Positions 5,482 through 42,873 of a stretch of DNA of 63,924 nucleotides are shown here, piece after piece. Both the position numbers and the translations under genes were made by a program. The notes under the pieces are model-generated. The model made no database searches, was not told the DNA's origin, and worked only from the letters and a program-made list of their open reading frames with translations. This stretch comes from Limnochordia bacterium (GTDB lineage: Bacteria > Bacillota > Limnochordia > JAAZLZ01), in contig JBMNRY010000001.1 of NCBI GenBank assembly GCA_050944915.1, positions 1-63,924 on the forward strand, in the 5' to 3' direction. Positions within the stretch are counted from its first letter, which is position 1; every line of letters begins with the position of its first letter.

Positions 5482-6165
5482 GTGTCCAAGCTGCCTTTGG
5501 CCATATTCCTGGTGATTCTTTTGACCACTACCAGCTGGGCCCAGCCCCTCCAAGTAAAGACGGAAGTGATCTCCCACGGGGATGATCTAGCCCAAATCCA
5601 ACTCCACCTGCCTGTCATCGAGGGTATCGCCGATGAAGACCTGGCCCGAAGGGTCAACGACCTTCTGCGGGATCCCTTTTTGGCCTGGGCAGAGGAAATC
5701 ACCGCCTTAGGCCACGAGACCTATGAAGAAATGGGCGCTGAATTACCTTGGTTTCCTTATCATCTGGAGGCCGATTATGAGGTGAAATATAACGATGGGC
5801 GTTATTTTTCCTTGACCCAATTGGGTTGGGCATTTACCGGCGGTGCCCATGGCCTGCCGGTCTTATCAAGCTCAAATTTGGATTTAGTCGCCGGCCAGGT
5901 ATTGACCTCTCCCCAGGATTTAGCCTTAAGGCCCGATCATCGAGAGATCATCCTCACCGAAATCAACAGGCAAATAGCGGCCCGTCCGGAAGACTATTTC
6001 GATCCCCAGGTCGATGATTTCCAAGAAGATGCCTTTTATCTAACCCCCGAAGGGTTAGTCATCTACTATCAGCCCTATGAGATCGCCCCCTATGTCACAG
6101 GGATTCCCCAATTCTCCATCCCTTGGGATCTACTGCATCCTCTCCCTGAGGACTTTGGATCCTAA
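5482..6165 (+). CDS. secreted DUF4163/DUF3298 (RsiV-like) domain protein
   Basis: GTG start after AAGGAGG. Signal peptide present. The TGGAHG motif is typical of DUF3298. Confidence 0.7.
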   Translation: MSKLPLAIFLVILLTTTSWAQPLQVKTEVISHGDDLAQIQLHLPVIEGIADEDLARRVNDLLRDPFLAWAEEITALGHETYEEMGAELPWFPYHLEADYEVKYNDGRYFSLTQLGWAFTGGAHGLPVLSSSNLDLVAGQVLTSPQDLALRPDHREIILTEINRQIAARPEDYFDPQVDDFQEDAFYLTPEGLVIYYQPYEIAPYVTGIPQFSIPWDLLHPLPEDFGS

Positions 6166-6286
6166 TCCGATTGAAGCTAACCTTCAAAGGCTTTTTTCTG
6201 CCCATAAGGAATATATGACCAGGAGTTCGACCCTGTGGCGAGAAGATGTTTGGGAAAACCTATAAAGAAAGGAAGATTCCTAATCT

Positions 6287-22057: not shown

Positions 22058-23194
22058 CTATTTCCCCCAGCGCCGCAGGGGCCGGCTTAATTTGGCCAGC
22101 AGGCTCGGCACTTCGGCGGTGTCTTCTCCTCCGATGTTTTGAGCTAGGCTTTGCAAGGCCTGGGCGGCCCGGCAGCTGGGGTAGGCCGTCAATAAGTCTA
22201 CTTGGCGGCGCACAGCCCGGAGCACATAGGGATCCAGGGGCAGACAACCTATGTAATCTAGATTATAATCTAAGAACTGGCGGGCGGCAAAAATTATTTT
22301 CCCCGCGGTTTCCTGCCCGTCCCTTTCCCCATCGACCATATTCACCAACAGTTGCAAAGGACCTCCATAACCCCAGGCATTGAGGACTTTAATCATGGTG
22401 TAGAGATCGGTGATGGCATGGGGCTCCGGGGTCGTTACCAGTATACCCCGGGTCACATAAGACATCAGGGTCAAAAGACTGACATCGATGCGGGAGCCCG
22501 TATCGATGATCACATAGTCGAATTGACCGTCCAAGGCCAGTAAGCCCCGACCAAGGAGATCTATTTGTTCTTGTCCCAAATATCCCCCTGCTGGGGTGCC
22601 GGTGAGACCAGGCAGCACCTGGATCCCCCCAGGACCGGGACAAAGCAAGTCGGTGATTGTCCGCTCCCCATTCCAGAGGTGACCCAAATTGTAGGGACTT
22701 TGGAGATTGAGAAGGATGTGTAGATTAGCCATCCCGAAATCTCCATCGATCAGACAGACCCTGCGGCCCATAAGGCCCAAGGCTACAGCCAAGTTAAGGG
22801 CCAAAACCGATTTACCCACCCCACCTTTACCGCTGATGAAGGCCAAGACTTTGGTCTTCTCCCAACCTCCCCTGGCTTGCCTGGTGACCAGCTTTTTCGG
22901 ATGGGCTAGGACCAAGTAGGGATCGGTGCCCCCCTGACGCTGGAGGACAAGGCTGGGAAAGGAGGTTACAGCCCCCGGTTCTTGGACTTCGATTTTAAGC
23001 TCGGTGCCCACCGGCAACAAGACTACTTGACCGCCCTCCATGGGCATGCTGATCCGCAAGGTCTCCTCCTCGACGGCCAGGATAGTCGCTAGATAACGAC
23101 CCCGGTATAAAGGCGACTGGGTCCGAATGCGGATCTTCCATCGGGGTTGTAAACGGTCGAAGACATCGGGCAGGTTGGACAATAGACTCCCCAC
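22058..23194 (-). CDS. PilZ-like beta-barrel domain fused to a MinD/ParA-type P-loop ATPase
   Basis: N-terminal part: RLQPR (an RxxxR motif) ... ILAVEEETLRISMPMEGGQVVLLPVGTELKIEV. Then the deviant Walker A SGKGGVGKS and DGDFGMANL ... DYVIIDTG. Confidence 0.7.
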   Translation of the reverse strand: MGSLLSNLPDVFDRLQPRWKIRIRTQSPLYRGRYLATILAVEEETLRISMPMEGGQVVLLPVGTELKIEVQEPGAVTSFPSLVLQRQGGTDPYLVLAHPKKLVTRQARGGWEKTKVLAFISGKGGVGKSVLALNLAVALGLMGRRVCLIDGDFGMANLHILLNLQSPYNLGHLWNGERTITDLLCPGPGGIQVLPGLTGTPAGGYLGQEQIDLLGRGLLALDGQFDYVIIDTGSRIDVSLLTLMSYVTRGILVTTPEPHAITDLYTMIKVLNAWGYGGPLQLLVNMVDGERDGQETAGKIIFAARQFLDYNLDYIGCLPLDPYVLRAVRRQVDLLTAYPSCRAAQALQSLAQNIGGEDTAEVPSLLAKLSRPLRRWGK

Positions 23195-23266: not shown

Positions 23267-24118
23267 CTAATGACCGACGAGAGCTTCGATAATCCGATCG
23301 ATATCATCGATACTATAATACTCAATCTCGATCCGGCCGGCTGCTCGACCCCGGGGTTTGATTCGCACCTTGGTCCCTAAAGCCCGCTGCAGCTGATCTT
23401 CCACATCTATTAACTGGGGATCTCTGACCTTAGGGGCCCCTTTTGTTCCACGTGGAACCTTTTTACCCCGACTGGCCACCAGCTTTTCCGTATCGCGAAC
23501 CGATAAACCGCCCTCCACTACCTGTTGGGCGAGGGCCATTTGTTCCTCCCCCTGGAGGGCTAAGAGAACCTTAGCGTGTCCAGCGCTCAATTTCCCCTCC
23601 AAAAGCAGCTTCTGGACGGGAGCCGTTAAACTAAGTAACCGCAGGGCGTTGGCCACCGTAGGCCGCTTTTTGCCTACCATTTCCGCCACTTGCTCCTGGG
23701 TTAGACTCCCTGCTTCCATCAGACGGCGGTAGGCCTCAGCCTCTTCCAAAGGGTTTAGATCCTCCCTCTGGATATTCTCCACCAAGGCCTGGATCATCAT
23801 CTGGGAGTCGCTGACTTGCCGGACGATGACGGGCATCTTCTTCAAACCGGCCCGCTGGGCCGCCCGCCAACGGCGTTCCCCCACGATGAGGGTATACCCA
23901 TCCCCTTCCTTGCGCACCAACACCGGCTGGAGGACCCCTTGGCGGCCGATGGATTCCGCCAATTCCTCCAAAGCCTCCTCATCATAGGTGCGACGGGGTT
24001 GGTAAGGATTAGGTTTAATGGCACCTATATCTACTTCCCGGACTTCCTCGCCGGCAGGGATGGGACCTTCCGAGGGCATTAGGGCTCGCAATCCCTTACC
24101 GAGGACTTGTCGACTCAT
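23267..24118 (-). CDS. spo0J: chromosome partitioning protein ParB/Spo0J
   Basis: IKPNPYQPRRTYD ... GERRWRAA ... GKKRPTVANALRLL ... GHAKVLLAL. Confidence 0.95.
   Translation of the reverse strand: MSRQVLGKGLRALMPSEGPIPAGEEVREVDIGAIKPNPYQPRRTYDEEALEELAESIGRQGVLQPVLVRKEGDGYTLIVGERRWRAAQRAGLKKMPVIVRQVSDSQMMIQALVENIQREDLNPLEEAEAYRRLMEAGSLTQEQVAEMVGKKRPTVANALRLLSLTAPVQKLLLEGKLSAGHAKVLLALQGEEQMALAQQVVEGGLSVRDTEKLVASRGKKVPRGTKGAPKVRDPQLIDVEDQLQRALGTKVRIKPRGRAAGRIEIEYYSIDDIDRIIEALVGH
23444..23459. promoter_or_regulatory. parS centromere-like site (copy 2, inside spo0J)
   Basis: The 20-mer cttttgttccacgtggaacc is identical to the one at copy 1. Confidence 0.8.
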
Positions 24119-24873
24119 CTAGCCATCACTTCCTCTGCTAATTGCTCGTAGGCTTGGGCTCCCTTCGACTTAGGGTCGTAGTTGAGGATGGGCAAGCCAA
24201 AGCTGGGCGCCTCGCTGAGGCGGACGTTTCTGGGAATGACCGTCTGGTAAACCACATCACCGAAGACGCTGCGGACTTCTTCCACAACCTGTTGGGAAAG
24301 ATTGGTTCGGGCATCGTACATGGTCATCAAAACACCTTCGATAATGAGTTCAGGATTGAGATGTTCCCGCACCAAATCGATGGTCCGCATCAGTTGACTT
24401 AAACCTTCTAAGGCGTAATATTCACACTGGATAGGGACTAAAACGCCATCGGCCGCGGTCAACCCGTTGATGGTCAGCAGGCCCAAAGATGGCGGCGCAT
24501 CAATGAAAATAAATTCATAATCACTTTTCACCGCTTCCAAGGCTCGGCGTAAGCGAAACTCCCGGGAAATAACGGAAACTAGTTCCACCTCCGCTCCTGC
24601 CAACTCAATGGTCGCCGGCGCGACCTCTAAGTTCTCCACAGCGGTGGTCCGGATAATATTCCTTAAAGGTTGTCCCTCGATAAGAACCGAATACAGACAA
24701 CCTTCTAGCTCCCCTTTATCGATCCCCAAACCGCTGGATGCATTTCCCTGGGGATCCCCATCGATCAACAAAACCTTGGCACCTTTATGGGCCAGATAGG
24801 CACCGAGATTCACAGCCGTGGTACTTTTACCCACTCCACCCTTTTGATTAACGACAGCAAGTACTTTTCCCAT
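24115..24873 (-). CDS. soj: chromosome partitioning ATPase ParA/Soj
   Basis: VVNQKGGVGKSTTAVNLGAYLA, 252 aa, with a 4-nt overlap with spo0J. Confidence 0.95.
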   Translation of the reverse strand: MGKVLAVVNQKGGVGKSTTAVNLGAYLAHKGAKVLLIDGDPQGNASSGLGIDKGELEGCLYSVLIEGQPLRNIIRTTAVENLEVAPATIELAGAEVELVSVISREFRLRRALEAVKSDYEFIFIDAPPSLGLLTINGLTAADGVLVPIQCEYYALEGLSQLMRTIDLVREHLNPELIIEGVLMTMYDARTNLSQQVVEEVRSVFGDVVYQTVIPRNVRLSEAPSFGLPILNYDPKSKGAQAYEQLAEEVMAR

Positions 24874-24880
24874 CTAACCA

Positions 24881-25768
24881 CTACCCTTCTGTCTGACCCT
24901 TTTTGGCTTTGGCGATATGGATTTCGATGACCAGTTCATCTTCCCCTTCACTCCGCTGCCGCACATCGACGGCCAGGCCTGTCCTCTTTAGGCCCTCCGT
25001 TAACTTGTGTAAACTGTTCAAAAAGGGTCGGGTATCTTTGATGATCCCCACCCAGCTTTGTTTTCCTCGGGGTCTTTTCTCCCCTTCCAGGATGGTTTTC
25101 ACCATTCTTTCCGTGGCCTTTACACTAAGACCCTCCCCGATGATCCTCTCGAGGACCGCCATTTGCATTTCCCCGTCGGGTAGTCGCAGTAAAGCCCGGG
25201 CATGCCGTTCAGAAATCATTTCCCGGGAAATAATTTCTTGAATCTCCGGCGGCAACCGCAACAAACGCAGCCGATTGGCGATGGTCGATTGGGCACAGCC
25301 GATCCGTCGCGCTAACTCTTCTTGGGTAAATCCAAATTCCTCGATTAGCCGACGGTAGCCCTCTGCTTCCTCGAAAACATCCAGATCTTTGCGCTGAATG
25401 TTCTCGATTAGGGCCAACTCCGCAGTCGTTTGGTCGTCCATTTCCCGGACGATGGCGGGGATCCGCTCCCAACCGAGAGTTTGGCAAGCTCGCAGACGCC
25501 GTTCCCCGGCCACCAGCTGATACCCGTGGGGCACAGGCCGGACGACGATGGGGTGAAGGAGCCCGTGCTCCTCAATGGAGGCCGCCAATTCCGCCAACTC
25601 CGTCGGTTGGATCCGCCGCCGAGGTTGATAAGGGTTGGGTTCGATCTCGGCCGTGGGCAGAGATTCGACGCCCTCCCCATCGATATCGGCCCCTAGGTCA
25701 AGTTCCAGAGCCGAGGCCAACTCTTCCTCTCCTTTGGCCCGGGCCCGTAAGATATCTGTAAGTTTCAC
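24881..25768 (-). CDS. noc: nucleoid occlusion protein Noc (ParB paralog)
   Basis: IEPNPYQPRR ... GERRLRA ... QSTIANRLRLLRLPPEIQEII ... ISERHARALL, a Noc-type HTH signature. It lies between rsmG and soj. Confidence 0.85.
   Translation of the reverse strand: MKLTDILRARAKGEEELASALELDLGADIDGEGVESLPTAEIEPNPYQPRRRIQPTELAELAASIEEHGLLHPIVVRPVPHGYQLVAGERRLRACQTLGWERIPAIVREMDDQTTAELALIENIQRKDLDVFEEAEGYRRLIEEFGFTQEELARRIGCAQSTIANRLRLLRLPPEIQEIISREMISERHARALLRLPDGEMQMAVLERIIGEGLSVKATERMVKTILEGEKRPRGKQSWVGIIKDTRPFLNSLHKLTEGLKRTGLAVDVRQRSEGEDELVIEIHIAKAKKGQTEG
25218..25231. promoter_or_regulatory. perfect match to the Noc-binding-site palindrome
   Basis: ATTTCCCGGGAAAT read directly from the sequence, inside noc. 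Confidence 0.6.
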
Positions 25769-33465: not shown

Positions 33466-33805
33466 AATTTAGCAACCCCACACCCCGGAGTAACTCCCTT
33501 AGACTACGGTAGAGCCCCTGGTAACTGGCCTTAGCGGCCTGAACCCGGGCGGAGATCACTACATCGCAATCGGTCTGCAATCTGGGGGCCAAATCCCGCC
33601 ATGCCTCTTGTAAGCGTCGCCTTACCTTATTCCTCGTTACCGCCTTGCCAACCCGCTTACTAACCGCTAAGCCCAAACGTCTGCCTTGGCCGCCATTTTC
33701 CAATGCATGAAGAACTAATAATCGATCGGCCCGACGTCGCCCTTGGGCAAAGACCTGTTTAAACTGATGAGATCGGCGCAACCGCGCTGCCGCAGGTAGG
33801 CCCAC
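33458..33805 (-). CDS. rnpA: ribonuclease P protein component
   Basis: 115-aa basic protein ([22 protein letters not shown]) directly downstream of rpmH. Confidence 0.9.
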
Positions 33806-33807
33806 TC

Positions 33808-33942
33808 TTAAGCAGACACCCGCTTGCGACCCTTAGCCCTTCTGCGGCTAACGACCCGGCGGCCCCCTGGGCTAGACATCCGGGCTAAGAATCCGTGTGT
33901 TCGTTTCCGTTTTAATACCTTGGGCTGGAACGTCCTCTTCAC
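33808..33942 (-). CDS. rpmH: 50S ribosomal protein L34
   Basis: Not in the ORF track. My own translation from a GTG start: [44 protein letters not shown], then stop. AGGAGG lies upstream. Confidence 0.95.
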
Positions 33943-33991
33943 CCGCCATTACCTCCTTTATGCGACAATTAGTCCATTAAACACCACTAAG

Positions 33992-34021
33992 ATTATAGCC
34001 CAAGGCCAAATAACCTGTCAA
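33992..34021 (-). promoter_or_regulatory. rpmH promoter
   Basis: The minus strand reads TTGACA-18 nt-TATAAT. Confidence 0.6.
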
Positions 34022-34141
34022 GCAATCGGCCTTTTCCTCCTCTTTTTTCTTCTTTTGGCCCTTCTTTCGTCGCTGCAAAAGGACTGTTCCAGCCCACTTA
34101 TCCTTGACGTTGTTGAAAAATCATAGTACGATCAAATCGCG

Positions 34142-34601
34142 TGTGGATAACTCCACCAGAATTTCTTTTTTCCAGAGGGGTTTCCACCGATGACCACAAC
34201 CTTAGAGGAATTATCCACAGATTGTGTAAAGTAGTGTGGATAACACCTAATTTGCCTTTAGAACTAACTTTTACCCTGTGGATAATTTTTATACACAGCC
34301 TTTCTGTGGGTTTTCAGTTATTTACCGTGCATTAGTCGCCCTCCAAAATCGCTATAAAGTGCCACAGCATGGGCCAAGGGGCAGGATCGAAGTCCTTGTG
34401 GATTTCCCTTGGCCTTTTCGTCCCCCACCACCAGGACTAAAAAGAGGGTAGGGGTTGTGGAAAACCTGTGCAAACTGTGAATTATCGACGGGAACCCGTT
34501 GTTGATAACTACTTGTACTTATGAACTTTGATCCTATGTAAAGTTGCTATTATTCGGGGGTTTTGCGGTTTTCCACAAGGATGAGTTCTGCCTGTGGATA
34601 A
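34142..34601. other. oriC DnaA-box cluster 1 (between rpmH and dnaA)
   Basis: Perfect TTATCCACA/TGTGGATAA boxes at 34142, 34211, 34235, 34277 and 34593. One-mismatch boxes at 34289, 34456, 34500 and 34569. Confidence 0.85.
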
Positions 34602-34675
34602 CCATTAGATTTCCCGGACCCCCCTTTTCCTTAGAGAATCAATTTTTCCCACCCACCAGGAGAGTAGGTAGATTC

Positions 34676-35506
34676 ATGGGTATATTTTCCCGGTTCTTCG
34701 GTCCAAAAAAAGAGCAAGGGGAGCCTGCGGCCCAGGAAGTTGAAGCCAGGATTGCCATTTACGACTCTCCCGGCGTCAGTCCCCGGCTAGTCTATGTCCA
34801 AGGGACCGATCCCGCATCCTTCATGGATGAAATCGCCTCTACCACCTATAATCTAGCCAAGGAAAAGGGCGGCCAGATACCTTTCACCGCCTTGAAAGAA
34901 ATCGCCGAAAACCTAATCCACGCCGACTTTTCCGAAGTGGTAATCACCATTTCCACCGATGGAAATACCATTACTTTTTCCGATAAAGGAAAAGGCATCG
35001 CCGATAAGGAAAAAGCTTTGTATCCCGGTTATTCCAGCGCCGATGGGAAGATCAAAGCCTACATCAAAGGTGTCGGTTCCGGATTACCGGTGGCCAAAGA
35101 AGCAGTAGCAGGCCTTGGTGGAAAACTCCTTTTAGATGATAATCTCCAAGGAGGGGCTGTGGTTACCCTCACCATCCCTGACCAGGAAGGGGAGGTGGCA
35201 GCCGATCTAGATCTAGATGAAGAGCAGCCCCAAACCCTCAGCGCCGATTCACCGCCTATCCATCCTGCGGCCCAAAATGCCGGCTTATCCCGGCGGCAAG
35301 AGACTATCTTCTTCCTTTTGGCCGACCATGGCGAAATAGGGCCTTCGGCGGTAGCCCGTCAGGCGGGGATCAGCCTTAGTACAGCTTATCGTGACCTGGT
35401 CTTTTTAGAACAACTAGGTTTACTAGAAGCAAAGGCTAACGGCAAAAGGGTAGTGACAGCCCAAGGACAAGCTTTGTTAAAGAAGATGCGGGCCCAGCAC
35501 CGCTAG
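34676..35506 (+). CDS. uncharacterised GHKL (histidine-kinase-like) ATPase domain protein with a C-terminal winged-HTH
   Basis: N-box EIAENLIHA, G1 SDKGKGI, G2 GVGSGLPVAKE, an acidic linker, and the HTH segment IGPSAVARQAGISLSTAYRDLVFLEQLGLL. The ATG at 34676 is preferred over the ORF-track start at 34544. Confidence 0.6.
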   Translation: MGIFSRFFGPKKEQGEPAAQEVEARIAIYDSPGVSPRLVYVQGTDPASFMDEIASTTYNLAKEKGGQIPFTALKEIAENLIHADFSEVVITISTDGNTITFSDKGKGIADKEKALYPGYSSADGKIKAYIKGVGSGLPVAKEAVAGLGGKLLLDDNLQGGAVVTLTIPDQEGEVAADLDLDEEQPQTLSADSPPIHPAAQNAGLSRRQETIFFLLADHGEIGPSAVARQAGISLSTAYRDLVFLEQLGLLEAKANGKRVVTAQGQALLKKMRAQHR

Positions 35507-35536
35507 CGATGACCACTGACCCGGGAGGCAGCGACC

Positions 35537-36874
35537 ATGACCGACCAATTGAAAATCATCTGGGACCAAACCTTGAACATCATAAAACAGGAGTTGACTA
35601 AACCTAGTTTCGATACCTGGCTGAAGGATACCAAGGCTGTATCCTATGCCGATAATTGTTTAGTCGTGACCAGTCCCAATGAATTCGCCCGGGACTGGGT
35701 GGAAGCCCGTTACAAAGAATCATTAGAAGAAGCCCTCCACCAGGTAGTGGGAGATCAATGGCAGATTTCCTTCGTCGTTCCCGATGAGGGCCAACCGATG
35801 GATAAGCTTCCTTCCAAACCGCCAAAACCAAAGGAAGAGCCCCATGCCGCCAATCTTAATCCCCGGTATACCTTCGATACCTTCGTCGTCGGCAGCAGTA
35901 ACCGCTTCGCCCATGCGGCTTCTTTAGCGGTGGCGGAAGCACCGGCCCGAGCCTACAACCCCCTGTTCATCTACGGAGGTGTCGGTTTGGGTAAAACCCA
36001 TTTAATGCAAGCCATCGGCCATTACGGACTGGAACATCATCCCGGCATCCGGGTCGTCTACGTCTCTTCAGAGACTTTTACCAACGATTTGATCGCCGCC
36101 ATCGGCCGCAAAGCGATGAATGAGTTTCGGGCGAAATACCGTAATGCCGATATCCTCCTCATCGACGATATCCAATTCGTCGCCGGGAAAGAATCGACCC
36201 AAGAGGAGTTTTTCCACACCTTTAACTCCCTCTATGAGGCTAATAAGCAGATCGTCATTTCCAGTGATCGGCCGCCGAAGGAAATACCAACTTTGGAAGA
36301 ACGGTTGCGTTCCCGTTTCGAATGGGGACTCACCGCCGATATCCAAGTTCCCGATGTGGAAACGAGGATCGCTATCCTCCAGCGAAAGGCTAAAGACGAT
36401 GGATTGAATATCGATGATGAGATCCTTTCTTATATTGCTGAGCAGGTGGAATCCAATATTAGAGAATTGGAAGGGGCCCTAAATAAAGTGGTCGCCTATG
36501 CCTCCCTGCAAGGACGGAATATCACCATCAACTTAGCCTCCGAAGCTTTGAAAGATATGTTGGCGGCCAATCGCAAAAAACCCATCGATATTAAAATGAT
36601 CCAAGAAATCGTCGCCGATTATTATGGGATTAATATCAGTGATATGTCCACCAGAAAGCGGACTAAAGCCATCGTCCTGCCTCGGCAGGTGGCCATGTAT
36701 CTTTCCCGGGATCTCACCGATGCCTCGCTGCCAAAAATCGGCGAAGCCTTCGGCGGTCGAGACCATAGTACCGTCATCCACGCTTGTGAAAAGGTGGCTA
36801 ATGATATGGCTAAAGACCCGGCCTTTTTTCGCGAGATCGAAGAGATCACCGAACAAATAAAACAACGAACTTAG
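35537..36874 (+). CDS. dnaA: chromosomal replication initiator protein DnaA
   Basis: 445-aa ORF: NPRYTFDTFVVGSSNRFAHAA ... GGVGLGKTHLMQAIG ... LLIDDIQF ... DHSTVIHA. Confidence 0.98.
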   Translation: MTDQLKIIWDQTLNIIKQELTKPSFDTWLKDTKAVSYADNCLVVTSPNEFARDWVEARYKESLEEALHQVVGDQWQISFVVPDEGQPMDKLPSKPPKPKEEPHAANLNPRYTFDTFVVGSSNRFAHAASLAVAEAPARAYNPLFIYGGVGLGKTHLMQAIGHYGLEHHPGIRVVYVSSETFTNDLIAAIGRKAMNEFRAKYRNADILLIDDIQFVAGKESTQEEFFHTFNSLYEANKQIVISSDRPPKEIPTLEERLRSRFEWGLTADIQVPDVETRIAILQRKAKDDGLNIDDEILSYIAEQVESNIRELEGALNKVVAYASLQGRNITINLASEALKDMLAANRKKPIDIKMIQEIVADYYGINISDMSTRKRTKAIVLPRQVAMYLSRDLTDASLPKIGEAFGGRDHSTVIHACEKVANDMAKDPAFFREIEEITEQIKQRT

Positions 36875-36879
36875 GTTGG

Positions 36880-37109
36880 GGAAAAGCTGTGGACGAGCTG
36901 TGGAGGAGTTGTGGACCAATTTGGCTCCCCTAAACTTCTGTGGAAGCTGTCGATAACTAAGGACTTTCTTCCACAAGCCTATCGACAGACCCAAAGGCGT
37001 CTAGAAGGGGAATTGCCCCCCTTTTCCACAGATCCACAGGCTATACTACTACGGCGACTACATTTAAATCTATTTAAAGGCATTTTGACTAATTTTTACC
37101 GATTGTGGA
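36880..37109. other. oriC part 2: degenerate DnaA boxes, trio-like repeats and an AT-rich unwinding region (dnaA-dnaN spacer)
   Basis: One-mismatch boxes at 36948 (TGTCGATAA) and 37022 (TTTTCCACA), plus several two-mismatch boxes. The AT-rich stretch catttaaatctatttaaaggcattttgactaattttt is also present. Confidence 0.65.
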
Positions 37110-37127
37110 TTGAGGGAGGTTATCGAG

Positions 37128-38237
37128 GTGGAATTACGCTGTGAACAAAACCTTTTATTAAAGGCGGTCACTGCTGTGGAACGGGCGGTCGCCCAAAGGG
37201 ATGTGAAACCGATCCTCACCGGGATCCTCCTGGAAGCTAGGAATGGTGAACTGTATTTGGCTGCTTCCGATTTGGAAATGCGGATCGAAGGGACCATCCC
37301 CGTGGAAACCATTCAGGAAGGCCAAGCGGTCGTTGAAGGAAAATATTTTGCACCCATCGTGCGCAAACTCCCAGGGGGAGATGTCTTCCTCCGCTATGAT
37401 GAAGGGAATAATTCCGTCAGCCTGCGGGCTGGTCGGGCCCACTTTAGTTTGCCAACTATAGCTGGGGAAGCCTTTCCACCGGCGCCAGTAATGGAGGAAG
37501 GTTCCTTTAGCTGCTCCATCGCTGAGGAGCTATTCAAAGGAATGTTGCGGCAAACGGTTTTCGCGGCGGCACCACCCGATGAAATCCGGCCCTTTCTAAA
37601 AGGCATCTATTTGGCCGGTCGGGAAGGGGAGCTCCATATGGTGGCTACTGATAGCAGCCGCTTAGCCATTCGGAAAAAAGACGCCCTTTCCCTAGGGGAG
37701 TTTAAGGCCTTGGTGCCGGCCCGAAGCATGCAAGAGTTAGCCCGTTTGCTCCCGGGAGAGGAAGAAGGAGAACTCCGGGTGCAGTTAGGCAGCAACCAGA
37801 TTCTCTTCCACGTCGGCGGGTTTAAGTTCTATTCCCGCTTAATCGAGTCGGAATTTCCCGATTATCTGCGGGTGATCCCCCAAGGGGAGCCTACCTGTAA
37901 GGTGATCTGTTCCCGCTCCCAATTGGAAGAAGCCATCGATCGGGTCTCTTTGTTAGTCCGTTCCGGTCCGGCCTTGATCGATTTCAAGATTGAAGAGGGA
38001 GTCTTAGGCTTGTCTTTGCGCTCCAGCACCGCCGGTGCCGCCTGGGAAGAGCTCGATGTGACCCAAGAAGGCGATGGATTGCAGATCTGCCTCCAAGCCC
38101 GTTATCTGTTGGAAGGGCTGCGGGTCGCCGAGGGGGAAGAGGTAACCATGGCCTTTTATGGTGATAATGGACCGATGGTCTTCACCCCCCGGGAAGGGAC
38201 TGACTTTACCTATCTGGTGATGCCTGTGCGGACATAA
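37128..38237 (+). CDS. dnaN: DNA polymerase III beta sliding clamp
   Basis: A GTG at 37128 follows GGGAGG. Sequence: ELRCEQNLLLKAVTAVERAV ... ILTGILLEA ... C-terminal YLVMPVR. Confidence 0.97.
   Translation: MELRCEQNLLLKAVTAVERAVAQRDVKPILTGILLEARNGELYLAASDLEMRIEGTIPVETIQEGQAVVEGKYFAPIVRKLPGGDVFLRYDEGNNSVSLRAGRAHFSLPTIAGEAFPPAPVMEEGSFSCSIAEELFKGMLRQTVFAAAPPDEIRPFLKGIYLAGREGELHMVATDSSRLAIRKKDALSLGEFKALVPARSMQELARLLPGEEEGELRVQLGSNQILFHVGGFKFYSRLIESEFPDYLRVIPQGEPTCKVICSRSQLEEAIDRVSLLVRSGPALIDFKIEEGVLGLSLRSSTAGAAWEELDVTQEGDGLQICLQARYLLEGLRVAEGEEVTMAFYGDNGPMVFTPREGTDFTYLVMPVRT

Positions 38238-39906: not shown

Positions 39907-42873
<2,967 letters not shown>

Follow-up and report, generated by a model that had tools for sequence, protein, structure and literature searches.

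A GHKL-winged-helix gene directly upstream of dnaA as a candidate origin-linked regulator in uncultured Bacillota and Actinomycetota

Gene X, its leader and its linkage to dnaA

The stretch of DNA analysed here (the window, 63,924 nucleotides (nt) of contig JBMNRY010000001.1 from a Limnochordia bacterium) carries, directly upstream of dnaA, a gene that we call X, which encodes a 276-residue protein with a GHKL ATPase domain and a C-terminal winged helix-turn-helix (wHTH). Judged by its sequence and gene context, X appears to be a dnaA- or origin-linked candidate regulator built of known domains, with a hitherto undescribed architecture and place in the operon. The gene occupies 34676..35506 (+), as delimited by its open reading frame (ORF) and by alignment with homologues. 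Its ATG start is backed by an AGGAGAG/AGG ribosome-binding site and by an M-x-x-F N-terminus common to the homologues, and its TAG stop lies at 35504-35506. The gap to the ATG of dnaA at 35537 is thus 30 nt long (35507..35536, +) and holds the dnaA ribosome-binding site, GGGAGG, at 35523-35528; dnaA itself runs from 35537 to 36874 (+; ORF, with P0273 named DnaA). A consensus scan found no terminator-like site on the + strand of this gap, and no sigma-70-like site on the + strand of 34287-35536, so that there is none inside X. The sequence-only reading of the window had placed this ORF between the DnaA boxes and dnaA, 30 nt before the dnaA ATG and with no terminator visible in the gap, and both coordinates and scan agree with it. 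A longer ORF with a TTG start (34544..35506, 320 residues) was rejected, given that it would cross DnaA boxes and that homologues align from the ATG at 34676. The GC content of X is native, searches of plasmid and phage sequence sets gave no match, and a PADLOC search returned matches to the wHTH of X only, leaving the GHKL part without a match. On the basis of the PADLOC, plasmid and phage results we rejected a reading of X as a defence or mobile-element gene.

Upstream of X lies a cluster of DnaA boxes, the dnaA leader, located by motif scan at 34142..34601. Five perfect boxes (TTATCCACA) are found at 34142(-), 34211(+), 34235(-), 34277(-) and 34593(-), and these are the only perfect boxes in the window; four more with one mismatch lie at 34289(+), 34456(-), 34500(-) and 34569(+). 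Five perfect and several one-mismatch boxes between rpmH and dnaA had been claimed from the sequence, and the scan located all five perfect ones at the claimed positions and four with one mismatch. Over the whole window, 24 sites have no more than one mismatch to the DnaA box, compared with 11.05 ± 3.04 in shuffled sequence. The cluster is collinear with the box clusters of relatives, X-carrying and X-less alike, and a box triplet, TTxTCCACA-N2-TGTGGAAAG-N4-TGTGGATAA, recurs in 45 of 86 loci. Because X-less relatives hold a similar triplet, we regard it as a property of the origin region and not of X.

Directly before the first box is a candidate promoter for an X-dnaA operon, TTGACG-17-TACGAT (34104..34132, +), predicted on nine of twelve consensus matches. 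The + strand block in which it lies, CCTTGAC-N17-TACGAT (34103-34132; CCTTGAC...ATCATAGTACGAT), is kept in three Limnochordia loci, in each case directly ahead of the first box. If this block is indeed the promoter, the transcript would begin with a leader of approximately 540 nt bearing all of the boxes, a layout that would allow autoregulation by DnaA.

A second block in the leader, GGGGTTTTT(C/G)CGG(C/T)TTTT at 34556..34575 (+), lies some 100-120 nt before the ATG of X. It is kept in three X-carrying Limnochordia loci (the window and the L002 and L094 equivalents) and is not evident in three X-less relatives; it could be an operator, or it could reflect mere clade-specific conservation. In one Actinomycetota metagenome-assembled genome (MAG; loci L013 and L018), the spacer between rpmH and X contains a single site within one mismatch of TTATCCACA, and this lineage may have a divergent DnaA-box consensus or boxes placed elsewhere.

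The association of X with dnaA extends far beyond the window. A profile scan of metagenomic contigs yielded 568 relatives, from which 80 loci were kept, and a tblastn census counted non-duplicate loci with at least 300 nt of downstream sequence (n = 78). In all 78, dnaA follows X directly and in the same orientation. Contig look-ups gave the same picture, with 7/7 homologues (38-61% identity, including a 424-residue variant with a long linker) lying between rpmH or rnpA and dnaA, on the dnaA strand. The gap between X and dnaA is estimated at about -32 to +95 nt across the loci, with a median of 30; in L005 the two genes overlap by 4 nt. A divergent rpmH is found upstream of X in 60 of the 64 loci with enough upstream sequence, across a spacer of 356-873 nt (median 664). 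Three of the four exceptions (L037, L067, L092) have other genes upstream, such as a Ddl-like ORF in L037, with X-dnaA intact, and the fourth keeps rnpA, yidD and yidC, L34 having simply been missed. Given that the pair is intact where the upstream genes differ, we take X-dnaA to be the conserved unit.

These loci span 11 deep clades of DnaA and GC contents from 27% to 71%, and the genes downstream of dnaN differ among them. Pairwise divergence of X and of DnaA is correlated over 65 loci (Pearson 0.82; Mantel 0/999), and the mean distances are 0.49 for X and 0.48 for DnaA, that is, the constraint on X equals that on DnaA. The closest relative of the window by DnaA (70% identity, Limnochordia) carries X. 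Three relatives with 60-63% DnaA identity (L095, L096, L097) are without it, in the same rnpA-rpmH / dnaA-dnaN-yaaA-recF-remA-gyrB synteny. The boxes of these three lie 271, 214, 194, 104 and 54 nt before the ATG of dnaA, and those of an X-carrying relative lie 271, 213, 193, 91 and 66 nt before the ATG of X. Leaders with and without X align collinearly. The box distances and this collinearity therefore place the gain or loss of X precisely at the junction of the dnaA leader with the start codon of dnaA. That X is the first gene of the dnaA operon had been proposed from the window alone, and the proposal gains comparative support from the census, the look-ups and the conserved spacing of the leader boxes.

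Domain architecture and extent of the X family

Both profile searches and structure prediction divide X into a GHKL part and a winged-helix part. An AlphaFold2 (AF2) model built with 118 homologues has a mean predicted local distance difference test score (pLDDT) of 86. In this model residues 1-69 form a family-specific β-hairpin (22-43) followed by a helix (46-63). Residues 70-170 are predicted by Pfam and AF2 to be an ATP-binding domain of Bergerat fold and histidine kinase (HK) type, the fold extending to about residue 166; the Pfam model HATPase_c (PF02518) matches residues 71-170 with 42.3 bits against a cut-off of 26.4. Within it are the N box, E75..N79..H82 (nt 34898-34924), the G1 box, D103-G-x-G107 (nt 34982-34996), and the G2 box, G132-V-G-S-G-L137 (nt 35069-35086). 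An acidic linker follows at residues 171-196, predicted by AF2 to be disordered at 175-187, and residues 197-276 make up the putative winged helix (197-273 in the model). The HTH_IclR model scores 24.7 bits here against a cut-off of 22, and the HTH_IclR, DeoR and TrmB models cover residues from about 200 to 260. In the model of this domain, three helices (206-218, 223-230, 234-246) are followed by two strands (250-252, 258-260) and then by one last helix (262-273). This is the H-H-H-β-β (wing) topology which, together with the profile matches, is that of MarR/TrmB/IclR-type domains, and DNA binding is predicted.

HisKA-type Pfam models gave no match to X even at E ≤ 1, and the maximum Kyte-Doolittle hydropathy over 19 residues is 0.92, which indicates that there is no transmembrane (TM) segment. 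NCBIfam models matched X below threshold only, these being the catalytic ends of histidine kinases, a Csa3-type wHTH and, weakly, SpoIIAB. Across 118 members of the family, the ATP-site residues E75, N79, H82, D103, G105, G107 and G132-V-G-S-G-L137 are invariant, as are R207, G222-P223, R239, L241 and R258 in the winged helix, and an N-terminal motif specific to the family, A-R-I-A-V-Y-D...P-R-V, is nearly so. The only invariant histidine is H82, within the N box. HATPase_c matches all 118 members, and IclR, TrmB or HVO_A0261_N models match 86-101 of them; HisKA-type models (E ≤ 0.01), HATPase_c_2, HATPase_c_4 and AlbA_2 match none. The profile, the N, G1 and G2 motifs and the Bergerat fold all place X among the GHKL/HATPase_c proteins, and ATP binding is predicted from sequence and model alike. 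The sequence-only reading had described GHKL motifs with neither a dimerisation and histidine phosphotransfer (DHp) region nor a TM segment, followed by an acidic linker and a winged-HTH C-terminus. Pfam, the invariant residues and hydropathy concur with the first part of this description, while the profile matches and the AF2 model concur with the second.

Comparison with solved structures points in the same direction. In a Foldseek search of the PDB, the top match to the X model was DIP2311 (3lmm; E 7.7e-8, about 278 aligned columns, 15% identity), the only top match with an alignment long enough to take in both GHKL and winged helix. The length of this alignment implies, as far as the model goes, the same order of GHKL and then wHTH as in X. 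The further matches were catalytic domains of histidine kinases (an EnvZ chimera, CpxA, HK853, YycG) and then the GHKL serine kinases PDK and BCK, with probability 1.00 for the HK catalytic domains, PDK and BCK. A profile search of PDB sequences had KinB as its best match (4e-8), with YycG and CheA also found, and no solved structure of a close relative of X.

We take DIP2311 of Corynebacterium diphtheriae to be a COG2865-type protein with AlbA_2, HATPase_c_4 and wHTH domains. Like X, it has a GHKL-like domain and then a wHTH, but the X family matches neither AlbA_2 nor HATPase_c_4, and the genomic context is different. The catalytic domains of two-component histidine kinases (PF02518; KinB 3d36, HK853, CpxA, EnvZ), which are the best matches by sequence and structure, have the Bergerat fold and the N, G1 and G2 boxes in common with X. 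Unlike sensor kinases, X has no DHp/HisKA phospho-acceptor histidine, no sensor or TM segment and no response-regulator partner gene, and it has a C-terminal winged helix; its N-terminus is a β-hairpin and a single helix, and the genes on either side of it are rpmH and dnaA. X is not covered by any curated family of Pfam or NCBIfam. The sequence-only reading knew of no described origin-linked regulator with this architecture, and our searches of the literature, Pfam, NCBIfam, PADLOC and the PDB likewise turned up none.

The family is both large and discrete. In a single-sequence search with X, 311 relatives were found, the best 120 of them with more than 200 bits each. When 1.84 billion representatives were searched with a profile, there were 396 clusters (50% identity) at E ≤ 1e-30, 609 at E ≤ 1e-10 and 22,126 hits at E ≤ 1e-3. 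We consider the family discrete because the generic HATPase background appears only beyond the 609 clusters, by E ≤ 1e-3. A search seeded with a member from Anaerosomatales returned at least 2056 clusters (90% identity) at E ≤ 1e-40. Taxon labels, taken from sources and from exact look-ups of L34, are Limnochordia, Clostridia, Firmicutes or Bacillota, Anaerosomatales, Coriobacteriia and Actinomycetota; in one clade the 90%-identity L34 cluster is also labelled Armatimonadota and GAL15. On these sequence matches, X appears to belong to thousands of uncultured Bacillota and Actinomycetota. The length of the linker between GHKL and wHTH varies widely, with some lineages having tens to more than 150 additional residues (proteins of 340-490 residues, for example P0010, P0068 and P0071, along with many profile-search hits that match in two stretches), and the long-linker P0071 is still encoded directly upstream of dnaA. 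The sole candidate from a scan of genome contigs with the single protein, L001, was rejected as a member, since it is a spoIIAA-spoIIAB-sigF locus that matched by chance through a shared G1-lid peptide, DSGKGIADKEK (6001..6180).

Possible functions of X

The reading that we favour, and to which we give an even chance of being correct, is that X binds DNA in a nucleotide-dependent manner and thereby regulates the expression of dnaA and/or initiation. X would be the promoter-proximal cistron of the dnaA operon, transcribed from the DnaA-box leader and thereby made together with DnaA, with co-transcription and DnaA-box control both presumed. The protein would bind ATP through its HK-type Bergerat fold and DNA through its C-terminal MarR/TrmB-like winged helix, with a flexible linker between the two, as both sequence and predicted structure suggest. 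It would then act at the dnaA control region or at the origin, tuning dnaA expression and/or initiation, and would in effect be comparable, as a one-component protein, to the oriC-binding response regulators of other bacteria, forming an accessory layer of control. We favour this reading because the ATP-site residues and the DNA-reading residues are both invariant, and because phosphorelay outputs acting at oriC provide a paradigm.

Regulators that act at oriC or on DnaA include Spo0A, CtrA, MtrA, ArcA, HP1021 and AdpA, as well as YabA, SirA, Soj, Hda, SeqA and DiaA/HobA, and among these Spo0A, CtrA, MtrA, ArcA and HP1021 are phosphorelay output domains that occupy oriC. What they have in common with X is the presumed site of action and, for some, a DNA-binding output; the Pfam and NCBIfam searches matched X to none of them. 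None of these regulators has a GHKL domain fused to a DNA-binding domain, and to our knowledge none sits as a conserved gene at the head of the dnaA operon.

Several results weigh against X being such a regulator. A sigma-70 scan over all loci found promoter positions that are inconsistent across clades, with a conserved candidate in the Limnochordia clade only. An operator for the winged helix was sought by k-mer enrichment, with DnaA boxes masked, in 58 non-redundant rpmH-X spacers and 45 dnaA-dnaN spacers, and none was found; the enriched words were only rpmH promoter words, CTTGAAA on the + strand approximately 450 nt upstream, degenerate boxes and trio-like repeats. Since the flanking spacers show no conserved motif besides DnaA boxes, promoter-like words and trio-like repeats, the winged helix is left with no target among them. 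The survey of rpmH-dnaA spacers in related genomes, proposed along with the original observation, found X conserved at this position, though of the four closest relatives by DnaA that were examined, three are without it, in a locus that is otherwise identical. Thus, on comparative grounds, X appears to be dispensable for origin function, and accessory rather than universal: strictly kept in some lineages and missing in close relatives. A search for signature residues of DnaA, comparing 65 sequences from X lineages with 116 presumed X-less sequences (three of them verified), gave two weak positions that are not in the window's DnaA, and there is accordingly no evidence from sequence that DnaA of X-carrying lineages has adapted to X. 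None of the taxon-labelled members has a cultured host, all being MAGs. Finally, HK-type catalytic domains that have no transducer are met more typically in kinases than in ATP-driven clamps, making us wary of taking DNA-directed regulation as the sole reading.

This last point bears on the main rival, a possibility that we think rather unlikely, namely that X is a protein kinase or partner-switch of the GHKL branch (like SpoIIAB/RsbW, PDK/BCK or CapK) acting on DnaA or another initiation protein, with the wHTH merely tethering it near the origin. The catalytic domain is of HK type, as the matches to KinB, YycG and CheA by sequence and to EnvZ, CpxA, HK853, PDK and BCK by structure attest. GHL ATPases need a transducer domain, and X has none. 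That X and dnaA are so tightly paired, at times with an overlap, suggests that their products are made in stoichiometric amounts, as happens with kinases and their substrates, and the automatic names given by JGI include 'anti-sigma regulatory factor (Ser/Thr protein kinase)'. SpoIIAB/RsbW proteins, like X, have a small GHKL domain with no DHp and a similar G1-lid stretch. Against this, X has a DNA-binding domain and a family-specific N-terminal β-hairpin that they lack, and SpoIIAB-type models fail on it (TIGR01925 at 17.1 bits against a cut-off of 135, and HATPase_c_2 in 0/118 members). Nor is there a STAS antagonist or sigma-factor gene beside X in the loci with listed gene content, DnaA of the X lineages has no distinctive conserved serine, threonine or histidine, and the invariant recognition-helix and wing residues argue for selection on specific DNA binding. 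The one mechanistic precedent that we found in the literature is CapK/CapS. CapK is an HTH-STAS-GHKL kinase at the head of an immune operon that it regulates; it responds to single-stranded DNA, and capS (STAS-wHTH) is always the next gene (PMC13373217). As an HTH-containing GHKL kinase controlling its adjacent operon, CapK lends the kinase explanation some support, and it resembles X in being an HTH-containing GHKL protein encoded at an operon head. In X, however, the order is reversed (GHKL-linker-wHTH), there is no STAS domain, and dnaA is the next gene instead of capS. In our literature search, a gene of GHKL-wHTH architecture located between rpmH and dnaA was nowhere described.

A further explanation, which we hold to be improbable, is that X is an architectural protein of the origin, in which ATP-driven dimerisation of the GHKL domain bridges or compacts DNA (looping the box clusters, or serving segregation) and the frequency of initiation is not set by X. 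ATP is generally known to make GHKL domains of the GyrB/MutL/Hsp90/MORC type dimerise, a long flexible linker of variable length would suit bridging, and the origin is bipartite, with box clusters flanking X-dnaA. However, the domain of X is nearer to HK catalytic domains than to those of GHL or MORC proteins (HATPase_c_3 matches weakly, in 15/118 members), and the k-mer search of both spacers found no repeated site other than DnaA boxes.

Just as improbable, in our view, is that X controls an unrelated regulon as its transcription factor and simply uses the dnaA leader for expression coupled to growth rate or gene dosage. The patchy distribution of X would fit, given that close relatives do without it, and so would the failure of the target-site search near the origin. 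Yet linkage in 78/78 loci over 11 deep clades, despite rearrangement on the rpmH side, and co-divergence with DnaA are hard to explain if there is no functional tie between the two. That X is a chance ORF or pseudogene in the rpmH-dnaA spacer, for which its unusual location is the sole argument, can be dismissed: the homologous clusters number at least 2056 at E ≤ 1e-40, the catalytic residues and those for DNA binding are invariant, and AF2 predicts the fold with confidence.

Returning to X as a regulator of dnaA or of initiation, a bolder version would make it a new class of initiation controller: a GHKL kinase or ATP-gated switch, encoded in the dnaA operon, that acts directly on DnaA (by phosphorylation or sequestration) or on the DNA of the origin (by occupying the dnaA leader or oriC in an ATP-dependent manner). 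We regard this version as possible, while leaning against it. If it is true, initiation would be coupled to the ATP or energy state of the cell in many lineages of Bacillota and Actinomycetota that have no known initiation regulator. The regulators of DnaA and oriC differ among bacterial groups, and we know of none for Limnochordia, for the Coriobacteriia-related lineages or for the other uncultured lineages found here. With conservation at the level of DnaA, a position always directly before dnaA, and ATP-binding signalling and DNA-binding domains, X ranks, we suggest, with the strongest candidates for a new regulator of initiation to come from genomic data alone. It offers a testable handle on how replication start relates to physiology, in the form of ATP-site residues (N79, D103, G132/G134), winged-helix residues (R239, K257/R258) and defined DNA regions. 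The 'universal' rpmH-dnaA junction, moreover, has a widespread and overlooked variant, which is relevant to the prediction of oriC from the rpmH-dnaA spacer.

The surrounding origin region

The downstream half of the bipartite origin is the dnaA-dnaN spacer (36875..37109), described by motif and composition scan. It begins with TGTGGA repeats (36888-36915), followed by box-like sites at 36948 (-) and 37022 (+). An ATCCACA repeat (37032-37038) lies 3' of the second box-like site, and then come a trio-like sequence, CTATACTACTACGGCGACTAC (37041-37061), and a stretch of 75-80% AT (37055-37105) which, from its base composition, is a candidate unwinding element. Among 45 dnaA-dnaN spacers of related loci, 15 contain TACTACTA/TAGTAG words, against a maximum of 5 in shuffles. 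By analogy, the order of elements in the spacer resembles the module of box, DnaA-trio and AT-rich unwinding region that is reportedly present in Bacillus subtilis and many other bacteria. A hairpin, GGGG-AATTG-CCCC followed by CCTTTT (37007..37025, +), abuts the box-like site at 37022; its stem is under the threshold of the scan, and it may be a weak terminator of dnaA.

With box clusters on both sides of dnaA, trio-like repeats, an AT-rich element in the dnaA-dnaN spacer and a switch in GC skew, the region has the features of a bipartite origin of the Bacillus type, and unwinding is predicted in this spacer. The skew changes sign at about 34-36 kb of the window, which is consistent with a replication origin there. 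X had been described as embedded in oriC. This holds for the bipartite origin as a whole, in that one box cluster precedes X and the other follows dnaA, but not for the likely unwinding element, which sits in the dnaA-dnaN spacer.

The genes around X are ordered as in the origin region of Gram-positive bacteria. On the left of the origin are a noc-like parB, parA, parB, mnmG, trmE, jag, yidC, yidD, rnpA and rpmH, and on the right are X, dnaA, dnaN, yaaA, recF, a remA-like gene, gyrB and gyrA. The divergent upstream neighbour of X is rpmH (ribosomal protein L34; 33808..33942, -, from its ORF), which has a promoter-like site, TTGACA-18-TATAAT (33992..34021, -), with 12/12 consensus matches; its -35 and -10 words (TTGACAC, ATTATACATT) recur in related loci, 30-130 nt from the start of rpmH. 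An Rfam search of 33800-37200 gave no match. Downstream, dnaN occupies 37110..38237 (+), assigned from its ORF and from Pfam DNA_pol3_beta matches to orthologues.

The gyrB gene (39946..42873, +) contains an intein, with Pfam Intein_splicing matching residues 555-837 between the Toprim and C-terminal domains. An intein is also present in gyrB of the related locus L002, and there is none among the listed Pfam matches for gyrB of L095 and L097. On the other side of the origin, two ParB-family genes flank parA (24115..24873) in the region 23267..25768 (-); the gene at 24881..25768 is noc-like and has no ParB_C match, and that at 23267..24118 has one. Adjoining parA-parB, at 22058..23194 (-), is a gene for a 378-residue protein that combines an N-terminal PilZNR (YcgR-like) domain with an ATPase of ParA/MinD type.

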